Part shown: piece by piece, positions 2,343-31,272 of the stretch | How positions within the stretch are numbered: the stretch's first letter is position 1 | Layout of the letters: the number at the start of each line of letters is the position of its first letter | Assembly: GCA_016933055.1 (NCBI GenBank) | Contig: JAFGBS010000009.1 | Span: forward strand, 570,001 to 602,000 | DNA from: Promethearchaeota archaeon | GTDB taxonomy: Archaea; Asgardarchaeota; Lokiarchaeia; Sigyniarchaeales; Promethearchaeaceae | Reading direction: 5' to 3' | DNA: 32,000 bases | Translations under genes and position numbers: made by a program | Notes under the pieces: generated by a model | What the model saw: only the letters and a program-made list of their open reading frames with translations | The model's database searches: none | What the model was told of the DNA's origin: nothing

Positions 2343-2546
2343 GATACCACAGAATCGGATTCGTCAAACGACAATAAAGTACCATCATTTAAAAAGGAAT
2401 TGAGCTAATAGGGTTGATTCTTACATTATTTTCTTGAAAGTTTAAACAGCTAATTAAGTAAAACTTAACTTTCTCTAAAGGAATGTCTTTCTGTGCATGA
2501 AAAAATTGGCTCTTATTATAATTTTATTCGTTTATAGGTAACGATT

Positions 2547-3941
2547 TCAATCTCTTTTTGTCGACTTCTCAAATATATGAAATTCCCTTCTGATTATCTC
2601 CGTATTATCATCATATAAAGACTTCTTATCTGCAAATAACTGAAGATCTTGATCAGATTTTTCTGCAATGAAACTATTGCCATAGATTGAAACTGGATAG
2701 CATCCGAATTCTGCAGCAATGTCTTCTATGTTAATTCTATAGCGTCCACCATCTAATGTCTCCACAGCGGGAGAAGTTACGACGATCCGGTGTCTCTCTT
2801 TAAGAATTTTGGATCCTTCTGAAAATAGTTTAGAATAGCTTGGAACAACAAGCTGCTCCATAACTGGTGATAACTGTTCATACCGAGGTAATTCTCGATA
2901 AAAAGGTAATAAATAAGGTTCAGAAACAATACCATCAAAAGAAAATTCCTTGAAAATGGAGGACAAATTTGCAATATCCCCCTCTTTATATTGATTTGCA
3001 TTGATTTTTTGAGGATTTTCAAGAATCTTTGAAACCCATTTAAGATTCTTAAGCGTTCCTTTGATGCGTTCAGGTTCAAGATCCATTCCATAAGTTTGGA
3101 TCCCCATGGTGTGTGCAAACAATAAAATGGTTCCTGAACCACAGAAAGGATCCAATATCCGATTACTAGCATTGGGTTTCTTTAAATGTAGTAGTCCTAA
3201 CATGATCTTTGCAAACTTCGGAGGAATACTGGATTTCACGTCCTTGTAAGGACGGTTCTCATCTAATTTTTTCATCTCATTCGAATTCGTAACATTTATT
3301 GTGTAGCCAATATGTATTCCCTCTTCGGTCATAACATACAACAATTCTTTGCGGTGATCTTGAAAGAGTTTATAAGCCCAGAAATGATGGGGAAAGAGAG
3401 GATTTAATGTGCCTTTATTAATTCGATCCTCAGGATAACGATAATATAATGCATTTTTTGCTCCTTTCTCTTTTAAAATTTTCATCCATTCTTTATTTAA
3501 GAAAGGTAGAAAATGCTGAACAAGAGTTTTATAATAGGCTTTTTGGAATGTAATACCGTAGATGGAATTTGCAACAAAATATTTAATCGGTTGAATTTTT
3601 CCAAAAATAGGGTAACAAGCATCCTTAAGGATATTTTCGATGTATTTTCGTTGTTTGGATTGGATTGTCATCTCAGATGTTATTTCTTTGGGAAAAGCTT
3701 CTTGAAAAGTTCGTAAATCAATAAATTCAACCAGTTTACCGATCTTTTGGGTTCCTCCTAATTGAAACATTAACCAGTCAAAATTTTTATCTTTTATAGG
3801 TTCCTGTTCAAATTCTACAACAGCGCCGGATGCAGAATAATCAGTTACACGACCTTTATATGGGGGACACTCCAAAATATTATTAATCTCAGCTAGTGAA
3901 AGTCTCCAGTTTGTACCTAAGATGAAAATGAATCTAGACAT
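2547..3941 (-). CDS. THUMP/UPF0020-type tRNA guanine-N2 methyltransferase (Trm11/TrmG10-like)
   Basis: N-terminal FILGTNWRLSLAE resembles the Trm11 start; IPPKFAKIML; SAM motif LDPFCGSGTILL; motif IV is EPY rather than DPPY. Confidence 0.75.
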   Translation of the reverse strand: MSRFIFILGTNWRLSLAEINNILECPPYKGRVTDYSASGAVVEFEQEPIKDKNFDWLMFQLGGTQKIGKLVEFIDLRTFQEAFPKEITSEMTIQSKQRKYIENILKDACYPIFGKIQPIKYFVANSIYGITFQKAYYKTLVQHFLPFLNKEWMKILKEKGAKNALYYRYPEDRINKGTLNPLFPHHFWAYKLFQDHRKELLYVMTEEGIHIGYTINVTNSNEMKKLDENRPYKDVKSSIPPKFAKIMLGLLHLKKPNASNRILDPFCGSGTILLFAHTMGIQTYGMDLEPERIKGTLKNLKWVSKILENPQKINANQYKEGDIANLSSIFKEFSFDGIVSEPYLLPFYRELPRYEQLSPVMEQLVVPSYSKLFSEGSKILKERHRIVVTSPAVETLDGGRYRINIEDIAAEFGCYPVSIYGNSFIAEKSDQDLQLFADKKSLYDDNTEIIRREFHIFEKSTKRD

Positions 3942-4068
3942 TGTGGTAATTTTCCATAATTATATTTGTGCATTGGTATTATCGGGATTTCATTAGGTTT
4001 TTCATTTCCATGAAAATTAATCTGATAAAGGGGATAATTCAAATAGCAAAGGAAATATTAGACAACCC

Positions 4069-5193
4069 ATGGAACAAAATCTCAAATCTATATGCTTTGA
4101 TTATTCTCATAACAATCGATTAACGATTGAAAATACAGCTTATGCAGATTTTATCCATTTTCTTTTTACAAGTAGTTATAAGGTTGGGAAAATAACTACA
4201 GGAATCACTTCCGAAAAGTTAGAACCTTACGACGTATTAGTTCTTGGGAGTCCCCTTGAATCTACCTTAACACCGTATGAAATTGAAATAATATTGGAGT
4301 TTGTCAAACAAGGGGGTGGTTTATTGGTCATCAATGATGATGGTGGAGATGAAGGAAATAAAACTAATCTAAATGATTTAACATCTATATTCGGTTTCAA
4401 GTTTAATCCAGATGTATTATCAGACAGTATGAATTATATCCGTCAACAAAACCGACCCCTCATCTCCAAATTAGAGAAACATTACGTAACCCAAGAAGTG
4501 GAGGAATTTGTTCACGCTTCTGGATGTACACTCACGGTAGAAGAAATCCTATCGGAGGATCCCAATGTTGATATACACATCTTGGCTCGTAGTGGTTTGA
4601 ATGCATTCACCAAATTACTAAATGGAGATGAAAGCGACAGTCCTAATGTCCCTGTTCTTGTGGGTGTGAATTATTATAAGGGAAAAGTAGTCGGAATTGG
4701 AAATCTGTCCTTTTTGTCCTCCCTAAGTTCTAGTTACGGATTTAATGCCTATGACAATAACGTCTTAGCATCTAATATCTTCAATTGGCTAGGGTATTCC
4801 ATGGAATCTAATGGACTGTCCTATGAAAATAAAATTGTGAGTGTTCCTCTCAACTATGCATTGTATATATGGGTAGAAAAACTGATAGAAAACCAAGAAT
4901 GGGGTTCCTTTAGTGATATTACCAACTTTGCTTTAAAATATGTGAAAGATCATTATGATCGAGTCATTGAGGAAAGTACAGCAATAAAGAAAAAACTACA
5001 GGAACTCAAAGATGAAAAGAAGAAGGATGCAAAAGCAAAGGCTCAAAAGTTGGACAAAGAAAGAAAGAAGAGTTTAGAGGAAATAGAAGACTCGTTATAT
5101 AATCTATTGGATGAGAAAGAAAAACGAGAAAAAGATACAATCAAAGATATAATGAGTGCGTTAAAGAAATATGAAGAGAAAGGCGAAGATTAA
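4069..5193 (+). CDS. Soluble GIFT (GldG/IFT52/DUF4350-like) domain protein with a putative RHH segment and C-terminal coiled coil
   Basis: DVLVLGSP...EFVKQGGGLLVINDDGGDEGNKTNLNDLTSIFGFKFNPD...GKVVGIG...DNNVLASNIFNWL pattern; highly charged helical C-terminus; no signal peptide or TM segment seen. Confidence 0.6.
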   Translation: MEQNLKSICFDYSHNNRLTIENTAYADFIHFLFTSSYKVGKITTGITSEKLEPYDVLVLGSPLESTLTPYEIEIILEFVKQGGGLLVINDDGGDEGNKTNLNDLTSIFGFKFNPDVLSDSMNYIRQQNRPLISKLEKHYVTQEVEEFVHASGCTLTVEEILSEDPNVDIHILARSGLNAFTKLLNGDESDSPNVPVLVGVNYYKGKVVGIGNLSFLSSLSSSYGFNAYDNNVLASNIFNWLGYSMESNGLSYENKIVSVPLNYALYIWVEKLIENQEWGSFSDITNFALKYVKDHYDRVIEESTAIKKKLQELKDEKKKDAKAKAQKLDKERKKSLEEIEDSLYNLLDEKEKREKDTIKDIMSALKKYEEKGED

Positions 5194-5265
5194 GACTTAA
5201 GATTCGATAATGATACATAAAAACCGTCCAGTTCTCCGACACATTCATTTTATGAATTATACTTC

Positions 5266-26002: not shown

Positions 26003-27388
26003 ATGGAATATTTCTTTAATCCGAAAAAAATAGTAGTTGTCGGCGCAACTGCAAATCCCAGAAAATTTGGGAATGTTGTAACTTCTAATATTCTTAGTAA
26101 CAAAGAACGGGATTATATCGTATATCTTGTTTCATTAAAAAAACAAAAAATTAATGGTTTAGGAACTTATGAATCTATTTTAGATATTCCCGATTCTATT
26201 GATTTAGCTATAATCCTAGTACCTGCTCCTGCAGTGGAAGAAATAATAGACAGTTGTATCAAGAAAGCAGTCAAGGGTATTATAATTGTCTCGGGAGGAT
26301 TTGGAGAAATAAATGAAACAGGCAAAATTTTAGAAAGGCGAATCGCAAATAAATGTAAACAAGCAGGAATTCGAGTTATCGGACCCAATTGTGTTGGCAT
26401 CCAAAACTTGGATATAGGGTTGAATGCATCTTTTATTTTAACACCACCTAAAGGAAAAGTTAGTTTTATTACTCAATCAGGAAGTTTTGGCGCAGCGGTG
26501 CTTTATGCAATGAATAATGAGCACTTAGGTTGCTCGAAGTTCGCTAATCTAGGCAATATGATCGATGTTTCTTACAGCGAGGTTTTAGACTATTTAAACA
26601 AAGATCCCAACACTGATGTAATTTGTATGTACTTGGAATCGGTTGCAGATGGTCGAGATTTTTTTTCCTCTATTAAACAAGTAATCCCAAATAAACCCAT
26701 ACTTGTATTGAAAGGAGGAAGAACCGTAACGGGTATGAGTGCTGCTTCTAGTCATACAGGATCGCTTTCTACGAATTATCAGTTACTAAAAAGTGCAGTG
26801 GATCAAGCAGGAGGTCATATGATCGAATACATTGCCGATTATACCACTGCTTTGAAAGCATTTGCGTATTTTCCTATCCCGCAAGGAAATAGAATTGGTG
26901 TAATGACCAATAGTGGTGGAAGTTCCGTGCTTTTTAGTGACCAAGCGGAACGATTCGGTTTGAACATAACAGAATTCTCTGATGAATTGATTGAAAGAAT
27001 ACGACCTCATGTAATCCCGTTGGTAAAAATGGTAAATCCACTTGACATGATTGCCGGTGCGAGAGAGGAACAGTATTATCACGTTGCAAAAGCCATGCTG
27101 GAAAGTAAAGATATCGACATAGTTGTTGGCTGTTGTGTAATAACACCCTTTTTAGAAATTCAATGGGACGAACATTATCGAGGAATGATTCGGGCGTGGA
27201 ATGAAACAGGTAGAAAAAAACCCATGATCCCGTTATTAGTATTTGCAGATTCTTTCCCTCAGATTCATGCATTATCTGAAAAGGAAAAAATAACAGCATT
27301 TTATACCCCCTATCAAGCAGCTTATGCCTGTAAAGTTCTAATCGATAGGATGAACTACTTAAAAAAAATACACGAGGATAAAAAATGA
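26003..27388 (+). CDS. acdA: ADP-forming acetate/acyl-CoA ligase alpha subunit (CoA-binding + ligase domains)
   Basis: VVGAT, GGFGE, IGPNCVG, TQSGSFG, LGNMIDV, YLES, LKGGRT..AASSHTG (phospho-His), TNSGG, NPLDM. Confidence 0.9.
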   Translation: MEYFFNPKKIVVVGATANPRKFGNVVTSNILSNKERDYIVYLVSLKKQKINGLGTYESILDIPDSIDLAIILVPAPAVEEIIDSCIKKAVKGIIIVSGGFGEINETGKILERRIANKCKQAGIRVIGPNCVGIQNLDIGLNASFILTPPKGKVSFITQSGSFGAAVLYAMNNEHLGCSKFANLGNMIDVSYSEVLDYLNKDPNTDVICMYLESVADGRDFFSSIKQVIPNKPILVLKGGRTVTGMSAASSHTGSLSTNYQLLKSAVDQAGGHMIEYIADYTTALKAFAYFPIPQGNRIGVMTNSGGSSVLFSDQAERFGLNITEFSDELIERIRPHVIPLVKMVNPLDMIAGAREEQYYHVAKAMLESKDIDIVVGCCVITPFLEIQWDEHYRGMIRAWNETGRKKPMIPLLVFADSFPQIHALSEKEKITAFYTPYQAAYACKVLIDRMNYLKKIHEDKK

Positions 27389-28539
27389 AACCAGTCTCAG
27401 ATGCAGTACTTCATTCAAAAAAAAGCAGTATCCGAAAATTATTTGAACTATTTTTGAAAAGCACCGATGCGATTTCATTGGGTATCGGACAACCGGATTT
27501 TCAAACGCCTGAAAATATTATGAATGGGATTCGAAAAGCACTGGATAATCAGAAAACAATGTATCCACCAGCATTAGGTATAGATGAACTACGGGAAGCG
27601 GTTGGAGAAAAGTTCCGAAAAGAAAATAGTATGAGATGGGTTCAAAAAGAGAATGTTATGGTCACTGTTGGAGGATCGCAGGCAATAGCATTGACCTTTG
27701 CTGCTTTAACCAACCCTGGAGATGAAATCCTAATAAATTCCCCTAATTTCTTATCGTATTATTATATACCTGCATATTATCATACTAATTTGGTAGAAGT
27801 CGCAAGAAATCCTGATTATTCCATTAATTTTGAGCAACTAGAGAGAAAGATCACTCCAAAAACAAAATTATTGATTATAAATTCTCCAAACAATCCTACT
27901 GGCTACGTTCTTACTAAGAATGAGGTAGAAAAGGTAGTAGATTTGGTAATAAAACATGATCTCTATTTGTTGAGCGATGAAGTATACGAAAAATATCTTT
28001 ATAATGGTAGAACTCATATAAGTCCTGCTAGCTTGGATGGTGTGGAAGATCGAACAATAACCATCAACTCTATTTCAAAAACCTTCTCTGCAACTGGGTT
28101 ACGTGTTGGATATCTTGCTGCACCAGCAGATATTATCCCATTAATGGAAAAATATGCCCAATACACCGCGGCAGGAACTGCCCACCCAATCCAGTATGGA
28201 GCAGTTGCTGGGATAAAAAACGGAAATCCAAAAATGGCAGAAATCATTCGAAAGTATGATGAACGCCGAAAATATTCATTTAAACGATTAGAAGAACTGA
28301 ATTTTGATTGCCCTATTCCACATGGAGCATTTTACATTATGCCCTCGGTGAAGAATTATGCTAAAACGGGAGATCAATTTTCTGAGGATTTATTTAATAA
28401 ACAGAAAGTAGCCGTGGTAGGTGGTTCCTCATTTGGATCATTTTCCAGTGATAAAGTTCGTATTTCCTATGCAACTACTAAGGAAAATTTAGAAAAAGCA
28501 TTTGAACGTATAGAAAAATATCTTGAAGACTTAAAATAA
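27385..28539 (+). CDS. PLP-dependent class I/II aminotransferase (aspartate/aromatic type)
   Basis: GIGQPDF, NSPNNPTG, SDEVYE, SKTFSATGLRVGY (PLP lysine), GAFY; ATGA overlap with acdA. Confidence 0.93.
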   Translation: MKPVSDAVLHSKKSSIRKLFELFLKSTDAISLGIGQPDFQTPENIMNGIRKALDNQKTMYPPALGIDELREAVGEKFRKENSMRWVQKENVMVTVGGSQAIALTFAALTNPGDEILINSPNFLSYYYIPAYYHTNLVEVARNPDYSINFEQLERKITPKTKLLIINSPNNPTGYVLTKNEVEKVVDLVIKHDLYLLSDEVYEKYLYNGRTHISPASLDGVEDRTITINSISKTFSATGLRVGYLAAPADIIPLMEKYAQYTAAGTAHPIQYGAVAGIKNGNPKMAEIIRKYDERRKYSFKRLEELNFDCPIPHGAFYIMPSVKNYAKTGDQFSEDLFNKQKVAVVGGSSFGSFSSDKVRISYATTKENLEKAFERIEKYLEDLK

Positions 28540-28778
28540 AGAGATAATACCCGAATAAATTATTATTCCAATTATTCCCATGGGAAATTTTCAAATAATA
28601 ATTAATTTATTTTTTAATTCCCAATATTTCTCCAAAATTATAATTCCCTTTATATTTGGTAATTTCATTTTCAGAAGTTAATATAGAGATTCGAATGACC
28701 CCTCCATCGATGAATCTATTCCTTTTAGGAATTACTCTTATTCTATTTTTAGACCAGCCCCCTTACTTATAGGATATA

Positions 28779-28786
28779 TTTATAAA
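28779..28786 (+). promoter_or_regulatory. Putative TATA box for the Lys-rich micro-ORF
   Basis: tttataaa about 70 nt upstream of ATG 28857; purine-rich gaaggaaagga directly before the ATG. Confidence 0.4.
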
Positions 28787-28856
28787 CTCAAAATACATCC
28801 TTTCTACAACTTCAATAAATTTGGAAGTTATTTTAAAAAAACCGAAGGAAAGGATC

Positions 28857-28934
28857 ATGGCCAAAAAAACAACAAAAGCAAAAACACCAAAGAAAACAAC
28901 TAAAAAAACCAAAAAGAAATCTACTAAGAAATAA
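28857..28934 (+). CDS. 25-aa Lys/Thr-rich micro-protein MAKKTTKAKTPKKTTKKTKKKSTKK (not in the ORF track)
   Basis: ATG 28857 to TAA 28932-28934, translated by hand; SD-like aagga upstream; synonymous codon variation (aaa/aag; aca/act/acc); hairpin downstream. Confidence 0.6.
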   Translation: MAKKTTKAKTPKKTTKKTKKKSTKK

Positions 28935-29027
28935 TTCTTGATAGAATTGTGTATTATTGGGTATTTTGGTTCGCTTAAAGATTCACATGGAAGCTTAGCA
29001 AGAAAAAGAATCAAAAAATAAAGAAAA

Positions 29028-29050
29028 ATAGGAATTATTACAATTCCTAT
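29028..29050. terminator. Hairpin between convergent genes, possible bidirectional terminator
   Basis: ataggaatt-attac-aattcctat is a perfect 9-bp stem, followed by a T-tract on + and a long T-rich tract on -. Confidence 0.55.
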
Positions 29051-29900
29051 GATATATTTTTTATCTGCATTGTGGTCGATAAATCCTACCCATTATCATA
29101 CCCCCAAATTAAAATACTCTTCTTCAATGCCATTTCTGTGTTAAATACTTCTTGCACGGTTGATTTGAAAAAAAGTGTATACTCTACAGCAGAGTTCAAG
29201 AAATTTGATAACATTGCCTTGGATCCAGATTCTTTTTGAACATTGGGATTTTGGAAAGTTAATTTAATTATATCCTCGATAACCATATTGGGATCCAACT
29301 TGTAATTCAATCCGAAAGTAATAGATCTGGTGACGATATGTGTTTTTTGACCGTAATTGATAACATCTGATTAGAAATTCTTGATTGGGTACAGAAATTT
29401 CGGTGTTGTCCAGATGACGCAATTTAGTATAAACGAATCGAATCTGGAACACCTCCGCGATTTTTTCTTGATATTTTATTCGATCTCCAACACGGAATGG
29501 TTTGGTTGTCATTAATATTAATCCAAAAATGACATTCCCGATGGTATTTACCGAAGCAAAACCGAAAATGGTTGCACCAGAGAATGCAAAAATTCCAGTT
29601 ACTAATCCTGATGCTTCAGAAAAGAATACAATGAAAAGTAAACTGACATAAAATACAATAAATCTTTGAATGCTTTGACGTGCAATTTTATCGATCTTAC
29701 CCCCACTTTTCCACTTTTTTCAATTGGGGAATGATAACCAAACGTGTCATAATCCAATAAAAGAATAAAAGAAATACTACTATGCTAATTTTGATTAGAT
29801 TTCCATAGGTAGGGTCCCTTTTATCAAAAGGTTTTTGTTTCCATTCCCAAATCGCTAACAAAAAACTTAGTATCAATAATAAGATAGATAATTGATAATT
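29047..29900 (-). pseudogene. mscS: MscS-family small-conductance mechanosensitive channel, frameshifted
   Basis: TM3/beta-domain motif GATIFGFASVNTIGNVIFGLILMTTKPFRVGDRI and ISVPNQ..VINY. Frameshifts at the T6 run 29715-29720 and near 29371, an in-frame TAG at 29088-29086, and no intact start. Confidence 0.8.
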
Positions 29901-30342
29901 TCGGTTTCTATTATATCCTTTTTTCAGAAAAAAAAGTCTTAGATTGACGATTAGAACTAAAATATTACAAGATTCTTGGAACTAGGCTGCAAATTTCTAT
30001 ATTTTGTTTACATATACTGTGCCAAAACTCTCAGATACGTTAAACATCTTGTCTGCAGTTCCCAAAATATTAATGCATAAATCTAAACTAAGACAACGCA
30101 TTTAAAAGTAATTTTTTTCCCCTAAAATTCACTATGAAGATAATAAAAAAAAAAATAAATTCAGAACATTTATAACGGATTATAAAAGCGTATGGAGGAC
30201 TGTTTTTCTCTTAACGATCACGACGTTTCTCTAGTACCGATTTTACAGAAATATTCCGATAATGCTAAACTTCATTCTATTTTTCCCATAAGTTTTTTAA
30301 TGTGAATCTAACAAAGAAACAAAAACAACGTTAAAAATTGAT

Positions 30343-31272
30343 ATGTCTGAAAAAAACGATATGACGGGATGGATCCTTTTCAAAAGAAAGTCTGAAACTA
30401 CTCCAGGTTGGGGATCTTATGCCGTAAATAGATTAATGGATGTAGCACCTTCCCGAAACATTTCCCTTAAAGTAATTTCCCCCGATAATTTTGATCTTAT
30501 TATTACCCGAGAGAAAAAGACCACATGGATAAATCAACAAGTTGAAAAAATTCCTGATTTTGTCATAACCAGAGTAGGTTCTGGTGCAAGTTATTTTTCT
30601 CTTGCAATAATTCGACATTTAGAACGGTTAGGAGTACATACCTTTAATTGCTCAAAGGGAATAGATATCGTTCGGGATAAATTATATGCCCAACAAGTTT
30701 TGGTTCAAAGCAACCTTCCTGTTCCAAAAACAATTCTAGTAAAATTCCCGGTGAACATCGATTTAGTAGAAAGATATCTAGGTTTTCCCGTAATAGTAAA
30801 AACTGTATTCGGTTCTAAAGGAGCTGGAGTATTTCTATCGGAAGACAGAAGATCATTCGTCGATCTGATGCAGCTTTTAGAAGCAACTAAACCTAATGTG
30901 AATATCATCCTTCAAGAAACAATTACCACTAGTCTTGGAAAAGATTTGCGAGTTTTTGTAGTTGGTGGAAAAATAATAGGATGTATGCAAAGAACCAGTA
31001 AAACTGACAGCTTTAAAGCAAATTTCTCCGCAGGGGCAGATGTAGAGGCATATCCTATCAATTCTGAAATCGAATGGCTAGCAAGACAAAGCGCACGAAC
31101 TTTATCATTGGATATTGCGGGAATTGATCTCTTATTTGATGGGGAGCATTTTAAAATATGTGAGGTCAATGCATCCCCTGGATTTAATGGTCTTGAGCAA
31201 GCAAATCCAGGATTAAATGTTCCCAATGAAATATTTGATTACATATCCTTGCGATTGGGAGAGTTTGATTAA
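30343..31272 (+). CDS. rimK: RimK-family ATP-grasp alpha-L-glutamate/amino-acid ligase
   Basis: PDFVITRVGSG, DKLYAQQVL, FPVIVKTVFGSKGAGV, ILQETI, DLRVFVVGG, FKANFSAG, IAGIDLL, CEVNASPGFNG. Confidence 0.9.
   Translation: MSEKNDMTGWILFKRKSETTPGWGSYAVNRLMDVAPSRNISLKVISPDNFDLIITREKKTTWINQQVEKIPDFVITRVGSGASYFSLAIIRHLERLGVHTFNCSKGIDIVRDKLYAQQVLVQSNLPVPKTILVKFPVNIDLVERYLGFPVIVKTVFGSKGAGVFLSEDRRSFVDLMQLLEATKPNVNIILQETITTSLGKDLRVFVVGGKIIGCMQRTSKTDSFKANFSAGADVEAYPINSEIEWLARQSARTLSLDIAGIDLLFDGEHFKICEVNASPGFNGLEQANPGLNVPNEIFDYISLRLGEFD

Follow-up and report, generated by a model that had tools for sequence, protein, structure and literature searches.

The locus and its genes

The window, i.e. the whole stretch of 32,000 nucleotides that was analysed, comes from a Promethearchaeota genome of 3.76 Mb (91% complete, 35% G+C). 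The gap between an amino-acid fermentation operon and a RimK-YcaO gene pair holds a very short lysine-rich open reading frame (ORF), here called the micro-gene, and the remnant of a channel gene. The features are listed below in window positions.

Plus strand, upstream of the micro-gene: POR-type oxidoreductase subunits of an amino-acid fermentation operon
26003–27388, plus strand: ADP-forming acyl-CoA ligase of the same operon
27385–28539, plus strand: class I/II aminotransferase of the same operon, upstream of the micro-gene
28779–28786, plus strand: TATA box TTTATAAA, 71–78 nt 5' of the ATG, a putative promoter element
28796–28829, plus strand: conserved upstream block CATCCTTTC...AACTTC-N10-GAAGTT, aligned in all six of six units
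28844–28856, plus strand: Shine-Dalgarno-like (SD) motif GAAGGAAAGGATC (GAAGGA/AAGGATC), directly before the ATG
28857–28859 (ATG) to 28932–28934 (TAA), plus strand: the micro-gene ORF (P0003), 25 codons plus TAA, rich in Lys and Thr
28880–28931, plus strand: degenerate, in-frame internal duplication of 24 nt (8 codons), KTPKKTTK / KTKKKSTK
28964–28967, plus strand: T4, the first short T-run past the stop, only weakly suggestive of an oligo-T termination signal of the archaeal type
29028–29062, no strand assigned: perfect 9-bp inverted repeat (29028–29036/29042–29050, 5-nt loop) and T6 (29057–29062)
29086–29876, minus strand: MscS remnant in four ORF pieces and three frames (29697–29876, 29602–29757, 29264–29512, 29086–29310)
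30343–31272, plus strand: RimK-like ATP-grasp ligase, downstream of the MscS remnant
From 31275, plus strand: YcaO gene, directly after the RimK-like ligase

An 82-aa piece of the MscS remnant matches PF00924 (MscS beta-domain). The break looks like that of a true pseudogene, since an assembly made independently by Logan from the likely source run has the same sequence as the window across this region; what lies between the micro-gene and RimK thus looks like a frameshifted pseudogene of an MscS-type mechanosensitive channel.

The first-pass annotation had described the frame from ATG 28857 to TAA 28934 as one of 13 Lys and 7 Thr lacking acidic, aromatic and large hydrophobic residues, and sequence and translation agree with it. 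The full composition is K13, T7, A2, P1, S1 and M1, with Met1 the only large hydrophobic residue; the peptide has no Asp, Glu or Cys, ends in ...STKK, and has a net charge of +13 and a pI of 11.1. Tandem Repeats Finder returned a period of 24 with 2.2 copies and 78% matches. The ORF is of low complexity, yet it is no simple repeat; in view of the degenerate 24-nt duplication, the original statement to that effect holds only in part.

The whole 3.76-Mb genome contains three ATG-ORFs of 15–70 aa with at least 50% Lys. The other two, as well as the inspected lower-ranked ORFs, lie at a poly-A contig end or are out-of-frame overlaps within long genes, and apart from the window ORF no ATG-ORF of the genome is at once intergenic, preceded by an SD and at least 50% Lys. 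A genome-wide DNA search found no second copy of the unit. The micro-gene stretch is T-poor, so that its composition partly accounts for an open frame; another forward frame stays open there as well and has no start codon.

Most signals around the ORF have counterparts in the homologous units of relatives (described in the next section). Canonical TTTAWATA-type boxes are located 75–77 nt before the ATG in both units of genome G001 (G001a and G001b), and TTTATAT-type boxes are located about 75–88 nt before it in the aligned units of L104, L117 and L031. The upstream block contains an inverted repeat (28808–28813/28824–28829) and takes the general form CATCCTTTAAC..ATA.AG.TTGAAG.TGA across readable units; it would serve as an operator or else form the beginning of the 5' UTR. 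The block folds into a hairpin as a single sequence, but RNAalifold gave only -1.7 kcal/mol with one compensatory pair, which makes a DNA-level site likelier than an RNA structure. An RNA structure in the conserved leader was rejected for want of support from consensus folding, and Rfam was likewise empty.

The SD of relatives is AGGTGA or AGGTAA at -12 to -7. Counted over positions -18 to -4 of 1815 long ORFs of the window's genome, GGAGG, GAGGT and AGGAG are enriched 11–12-fold, AGGTG 5.4-fold, GGTGA 3.6-fold and AAGGA 3.2-fold, and the SD in the window is weaker than that of the relatives. Downstream, T5–T9 runs occur in relatives 30–60 nt past their stops. The hairpin of the window starts 94 nt past the micro-gene stop, several T-runs follow it on the minus strand too, and it may terminate either the micro-gene or a convergent minus-strand transcript of the MscS remnant. 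The idea of a small, self-contained unit is supported: TATA box, SD-like motif and 9-bp hairpin are all present. As a terminator, the hairpin suits the convergent MscS remnant at least equally well. The promoter and terminator scan was of bacterial type and uninformative for an archaeon. Two metatranscriptome contig sets of the source study leave 27385–30400 uncovered, an observation that carries no weight either way.

Homologous units and coding constraint

Short K/T-rich ORFs had been proposed as something to look for at the syntenic locus of related genomes, and homologous units were indeed found there. Four further lineages of this genus-level group of Promethearchaeota have them directly 3' of the aminotransferase orthologue, 175–320 nt past this gene, whose amino-acid identity is 77–81% (74–81% among the metagenome contigs). 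In G001, a member of the same genus, CoA ligase and aminotransferase are syntenic at 75% nucleotide identity and a 32-codon Lys-rich ORF (P0002) begins about 200 nt past the aminotransferase. The metagenome lineage represented by L031, L092, L093 and L095 has a 33-aa ORF (P0001), which gene calling had picked up on four contigs from four samples. L117 carries a 33-codon variant (P0126) at the same place, L104 another one that is directly followed by a CitMHS permease, and a JGI contig (metagenome 3300042731; 7,325 nt) has the gene order aminotransferase (755–1906), 42-aa called gene (2180–2308), RimK (2491–3402), YcaO (3407–5260). All readable units share one layout, namely TATA-type box, conserved block, SD and an ATG followed by G.

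By BLASTN, the window unit matches the units of L104, L031 and L117 at 66–67% identity over a stretch that begins at the TATA box and reaches into the ORF. The alignment keeps a KKT...TKK.KK segment in frame and needs compensating indels of 2, 5 and 3 nt. The N-terminal MGxKGKQxKKKKT is kept in the other variants and absent from the window copy, which is the most diverged member of the family (25 aa vs. 32–33 aa, eight codons shorter than the 33-codon variants) and has the highest Lys share (52%). Net charge stays between +10 and +13 across the family despite the turnover in sequence; the sister peptides have no Cys and at most one Ser.

At the end of G001 contig C84 (L025:4250-4340), a second tandem unit with TATA box, conserved block, AGGTGA and ATG GGT AAC AAA GG... 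starts about 530 nt past the first, begins with MGNK and is cut by the contig end; the unit is therefore able to duplicate.

The three 33-codon variants have equal length and the same stop position with stops TAA, TAA and TAG. Their codons 1–14 differ by two changes, both synonymous and both at third positions (chance of 0.027 for two random substitutions), while codons 15–33 show many replacements. The first 42 nt are depleted of substitutions (P about 0.009), and the probability that the ORF would survive 18 random substitutions is 0.08. Between L031 and L104, identity is 92% in the ORF, compared with 83% on its upstream side, 82% on its downstream side and 79% in the coding sequence of the aminotransferase; in G001a, MGxKGKQxKKKKT is retained across four synonymous differences. 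Judged from these alignments, frame, start and stop are conserved with synonymous-biased changes in the three 33-codon sisters, the pattern that the first-pass annotation had proposed to look for, whereas in the window copy only start, frame and composition are conserved. We regard a real coding gene family as probable. That the window copy is still functional is a closer call, on which we lean slightly towards yes.

The unit is absent from three lineages with an equally similar aminotransferase, so the micro-gene must be dispensable. Its narrow and patchy distribution, together with the fast-evolving C-terminus, suggests a young, dispensable gene. This limits the general importance of the micro-gene, which may on the other hand exemplify recent turnover of micro-genes. 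The units are best read as a family confined to a single genus-level group of Lokiarchaeia-type Promethearchaeota, and the searches described next turned up no member outside it.

For such short Lys-rich frames, homology searches at the peptide level see next to nothing. A profile (HMM) search of 1.84 billion representatives had one match (P0126 of L117); in 41 relatives, a six-frame search for the window peptide returned nothing but the peptide itself, and one with P0001 in 121 genomes found nothing new and even missed the visible G001 homologue. Searches with 44-aa and 52-aa extended frames returned no homologues, and all scores of an Atlas search remained below 0.8. When the DNA of the gap was searched for in relatives, all matches were of low complexity and fell on K/T-rich tails of unrelated long proteins. 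The pattern ATGGGTRRMAAAGG, searched across the order, yielded no further members among the 72 matches listed (30 loci read), a number that barely exceeds that of the backwards-pattern control.

Some long proteins of other genera in the family, unrelated to one another, carry long K/T-rich tails or linkers of the 'KKTTKK' kind (L008, L011, L017, L015; G010, G013, G011, G008). In one of these the K/T stretch precedes a translation-type GTPase P-loop, and none are RadA orthologues.

Proposed mode of action and known polycations

The reading that we favour, at a probability of roughly 0.5, is that of a genuine micro-gene, independently transcribed and under regulation, with a product that binds RNA or DNA electrostatically. 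From the observed sequence features, their conservation and the codon constraint in the sisters, we infer the following course of transcription, translation and target binding. Transcription would start about 25 nt past the TATA box at 28779–28786 and give a leader of about 45 nt that contains the conserved inverted-repeat block, probably a regulator site, and the SD-like GAAGGA. Translation from ATG 28857 would produce the 25-aa peptide, from which Met1 is probably removed because the second residue is Ala (calculated mass 2849.5 Da, or 2718.3 Da after removal of Met1). The product would be an intrinsically disordered polycation of net charge +13 with no acidic or hydrophobic side chains, most likely acting by electrostatic binding to polyanions. 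Candidate targets are rRNA and the ribosome or other RNA, as for tiny basic ribosomal proteins, and DNA, as for free histone-tail or H1-tail segments. Going by charge alone, an acid-poor, disordered polycation of 25–33 aa should bind polyanions; whether nucleic-acid binding is its mode of action, given that the protein is made, is on the same argument from charge about an even bet.

Among known polycations, the first-pass annotation had pointed to linker histone H1 and to Chlamydia Hc1. Like the S/TPKK tail of H1 and like Hc1/Hc2, the micro-protein is rich in K, T, A and P, acid-free and disordered, and the window copy has one TPKK. Unlike these proteins it lacks a globular domain, and its length is 25 aa instead of more than 100 aa. 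The single TPKK is restricted to the window copy, with APTKK, KPETKK or ALTNK at the aligned place in relatives. Neither the window peptide nor three homologues matched any Pfam-A family (hmmscan, E≤10), including the linker histone H1 winged-helix (PF00538) and Hc1/Hc2 models; NCBIfam had no match for the micro-protein, and phmmer with the homologue P0001 found nothing among all PDB chains (E≤10). The proposed kinship with H1 or Hc1 thus loses its footing, and the resemblance to H1 tails is, as far as these comparisons go, compositional only.

A closer comparison in size is offered by bS22 (33 aa), bL37 and eL41, basic peptides of 24–33 aa that are proven rRNA binders (PMC10085706; for archaeal eL41, PMC7005279). 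Like them, the micro-gene is stand-alone, extremely basic and of a kind often missed or left 'hypothetical' in annotation, and like bS22 and bL37 it is lineage-restricted. These ribosomal peptides act by electrostatic lining of rRNA cavities. In contrast to the Lys/Thr peptide of the window, they are Arg-rich with hydrophobic residues and helices, and there is no sequence similarity. The occurrence of the micro-gene in only a few near-species lineages and its lack in equally close ones would also be unexpected for a ribosomal component. The Ribosomal_L41 Pfam model found nothing in the micro-proteins at E≤10; PF05162 had no match in the whole genome either, with control genomes showing this model to be insensitive.

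Lysine-rich N-terminal tails have been described for the Asgard histones HLoB and HMpB (bioRxiv 10.64898/2026.07.02.735847). The micro-protein falls within the range of these tails and of the RadA tail discussed below (16–32 aa, more than 30% Lys, high pI), and differs from the histone tails in being free-standing. Descent from a histone tail was rejected, as the five histone-fold genes of this genome have short tails only (up to about 10 residues).

K/T-rich windows occur in just six long ORFs of the genome, one of them RadA (L002:1496-2659; contig C22, about 205950), in which a K/T-rich N-terminal tail of 22 residues and an acidic linker precede the core with HhH and ATPase. This tail can be aligned almost colinearly to the window peptide, at 15 identities (shuffle P=0.02). 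An origin by copying of the radA 5' end was set aside, the similarity being barely beyond composition.

An N-myristoylation signal of the MG-polybasic type was dismissed by the general rule for N-myristoyltransferase (NMT) substrates: Lys follows Gly2, position 6 holds no Ser or Thr, and the window copy starts with MA.

The micro-protein belongs to a new and very narrow family, whereas its general kind, the tiny polybasic micro-proteins, is already known. In archaea such proteins are almost unknown apart from eL41, because genes below about 30 codons escape annotation. With the micro-gene, the lineage closest to eukaryotes gains a candidate polycation for binding to nucleic acid or the ribosome; lysine-rich tails of histones, and enzymes that modify them, are now being described from the same lineage. 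As a synthetic peptide of 2.7 kDa, its product is a concrete and cheap object for testing.

Alternative readings and variation at the locus

The alternative that survives best, unlikely as we judge it, is a decaying relic, in which the family is real and the window copy is degenerating, its frame open only through A-rich, T-poor sequence. The missing N-terminal motif, the reduced length and the compensating indels of the window copy would all follow the pattern of such decay, as would the broken MscS gene next to it (four pieces, three frames) and the complete absence of the unit from some related lineages. Nevertheless, the window copy retains ATG, SD-like motif, TATA box and upstream block at the right spacing, its Lys content is the family maximum, and nearly all of its codons (AAA, AAG, ACA etc.) are one or two steps from a stop, none of which arose.

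Distinctly less probable is a non-coding A-rich RNA, e.g. a protein sponge or regulator, on which the ORF would be incidental. Conservation of the unit is best ahead of the ATG and in the first 42 nt of the ORF, which are nearly invariant in nucleotides, and no protein homology of the micro-protein was found, as such an RNA would have it. Against it stand the fixed distance between SD and ATG, the stop position kept with differing stop codons and the placement of both changes in codons 1–14 at third positions. Further, the best Rfam hit was no match (E 0.4, wrong strand), the fold z-score was -1.7 with the ORF part unpaired, and the consensus fold of the units gave no covariation signal beyond the one compensatory pair.

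The nearby RimK-like ligase and YcaO raised the question of whether the micro-protein is their substrate, as first entertained, or their precursor, RiPP-like or C-terminally glutamylated. A small gene near these two enzymes is in keeping with RiPP precursors and RimK acceptors: the JGI contig has its small gene on the strand of RimK-YcaO, 183 nt before the pair, the window shows micro-gene, RimK and YcaO in the same order and strand, and the conserved N-terminus and variable C-terminus of the family resemble a leader-plus-core layout. The linkage is inconsistent, however. In the window, 1.4 kb and the opposite-strand MscS remnant separate the micro-gene from RimK-YcaO; in L104, the CitMHS permease directly follows the micro-gene and RimK-YcaO is not adjacent; and in G001 no YcaO or RimK orthologue was found alongside the two units, in an assembly that is 76% complete and whose contig ends at the units. 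None of the seven loci around RimK homologues (33–48% identity; Planctomycetes, Bacteroidota, Sulfurovaceae and another Promethearchaeote) contains a basic small ORF. The JGI contig is the one case of adjacency, and the idea is weak. The RimK-family acceptor S6 ends in ...EE, and LysW has EDWGE and a Zn-ribbon CxxC pair; the window peptide, ending in KK, has neither an acidic C-terminus nor a Zn ribbon. We consider the substrate role improbable, even slightly more so than a non-coding RNA.

A wider conjecture, in which the Lys-rich micro-protein is a ribosomally made scaffold of a module of RimK-like ligase, YcaO and a second ATP-grasp enzyme, or else a free histone-tail-like chromatin regulator or a lineage-specific ribosomal protein, is on a par with the non-coding RNA and likewise doubtful. 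A scaffold, if true, would represent a new Asgard peptide-modification pathway with a polylysine peptide that is glutamylated or backbone-modified.

The RimK-like ligase itself was found in one other genome among the 120 searched in the order (45% identity), and its next-best homologues come from Planctomycetes and Bacteroidota MAGs (45–48%; L106–L111). This rarity and the affiliation of the homologues suggest that the RimK-YcaO cassette may have been acquired horizontally. The data would fit a micro-gene that is older than the RimK-YcaO insertion or independent of it.

A regulatory leader peptide or uORF, whose Lys/Thr-codon-rich translation would tune the downstream permease or RimK operon, is very unlikely. 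Lys codons are dense, and what follows the micro-gene is the permease in L104 and RimK in the JGI contig. Yet the downstream neighbour varies by lineage and the next gene in the window is on the opposite strand, T-runs follow the ORF and no alternative hairpins were seen in the fold, and the upstream region of the permease is retained in lineages without the unit. To our knowledge, attenuation by leader peptides is not established in archaea. The antisense 83-aa ORF (28763–29014, minus strand), named initially as the competing expressed gene, is the longest frame in the gap, but it is a Phe-rich mirror of the Lys frame with no Pfam match, the corresponding frames are interrupted by stops in all four of four relatives, and we give it next to no chance.

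A contig of 187 nt with no differences to window positions 28802–28988 was found in a 2017 run from another study labelled as hot springs metagenome, a run that contains 13% of the sampled words of 26003–31272; this shows only that the same sequence occurs elsewhere, and nothing beyond that. The spot 3' of the aminotransferase (28540–30343 in the window; L096–L105; L104) is a rearrangement hot spot. In L095, the 33-aa gene is identical to that of L031 and the two sequences part ways about 40 nt past the stop. Depending on the lineage, the spot holds a CitMHS permease with nothing before it, an opposite-strand AFOR gene, the micro-gene followed by the permease, or the micro-gene followed by RimK-YcaO.
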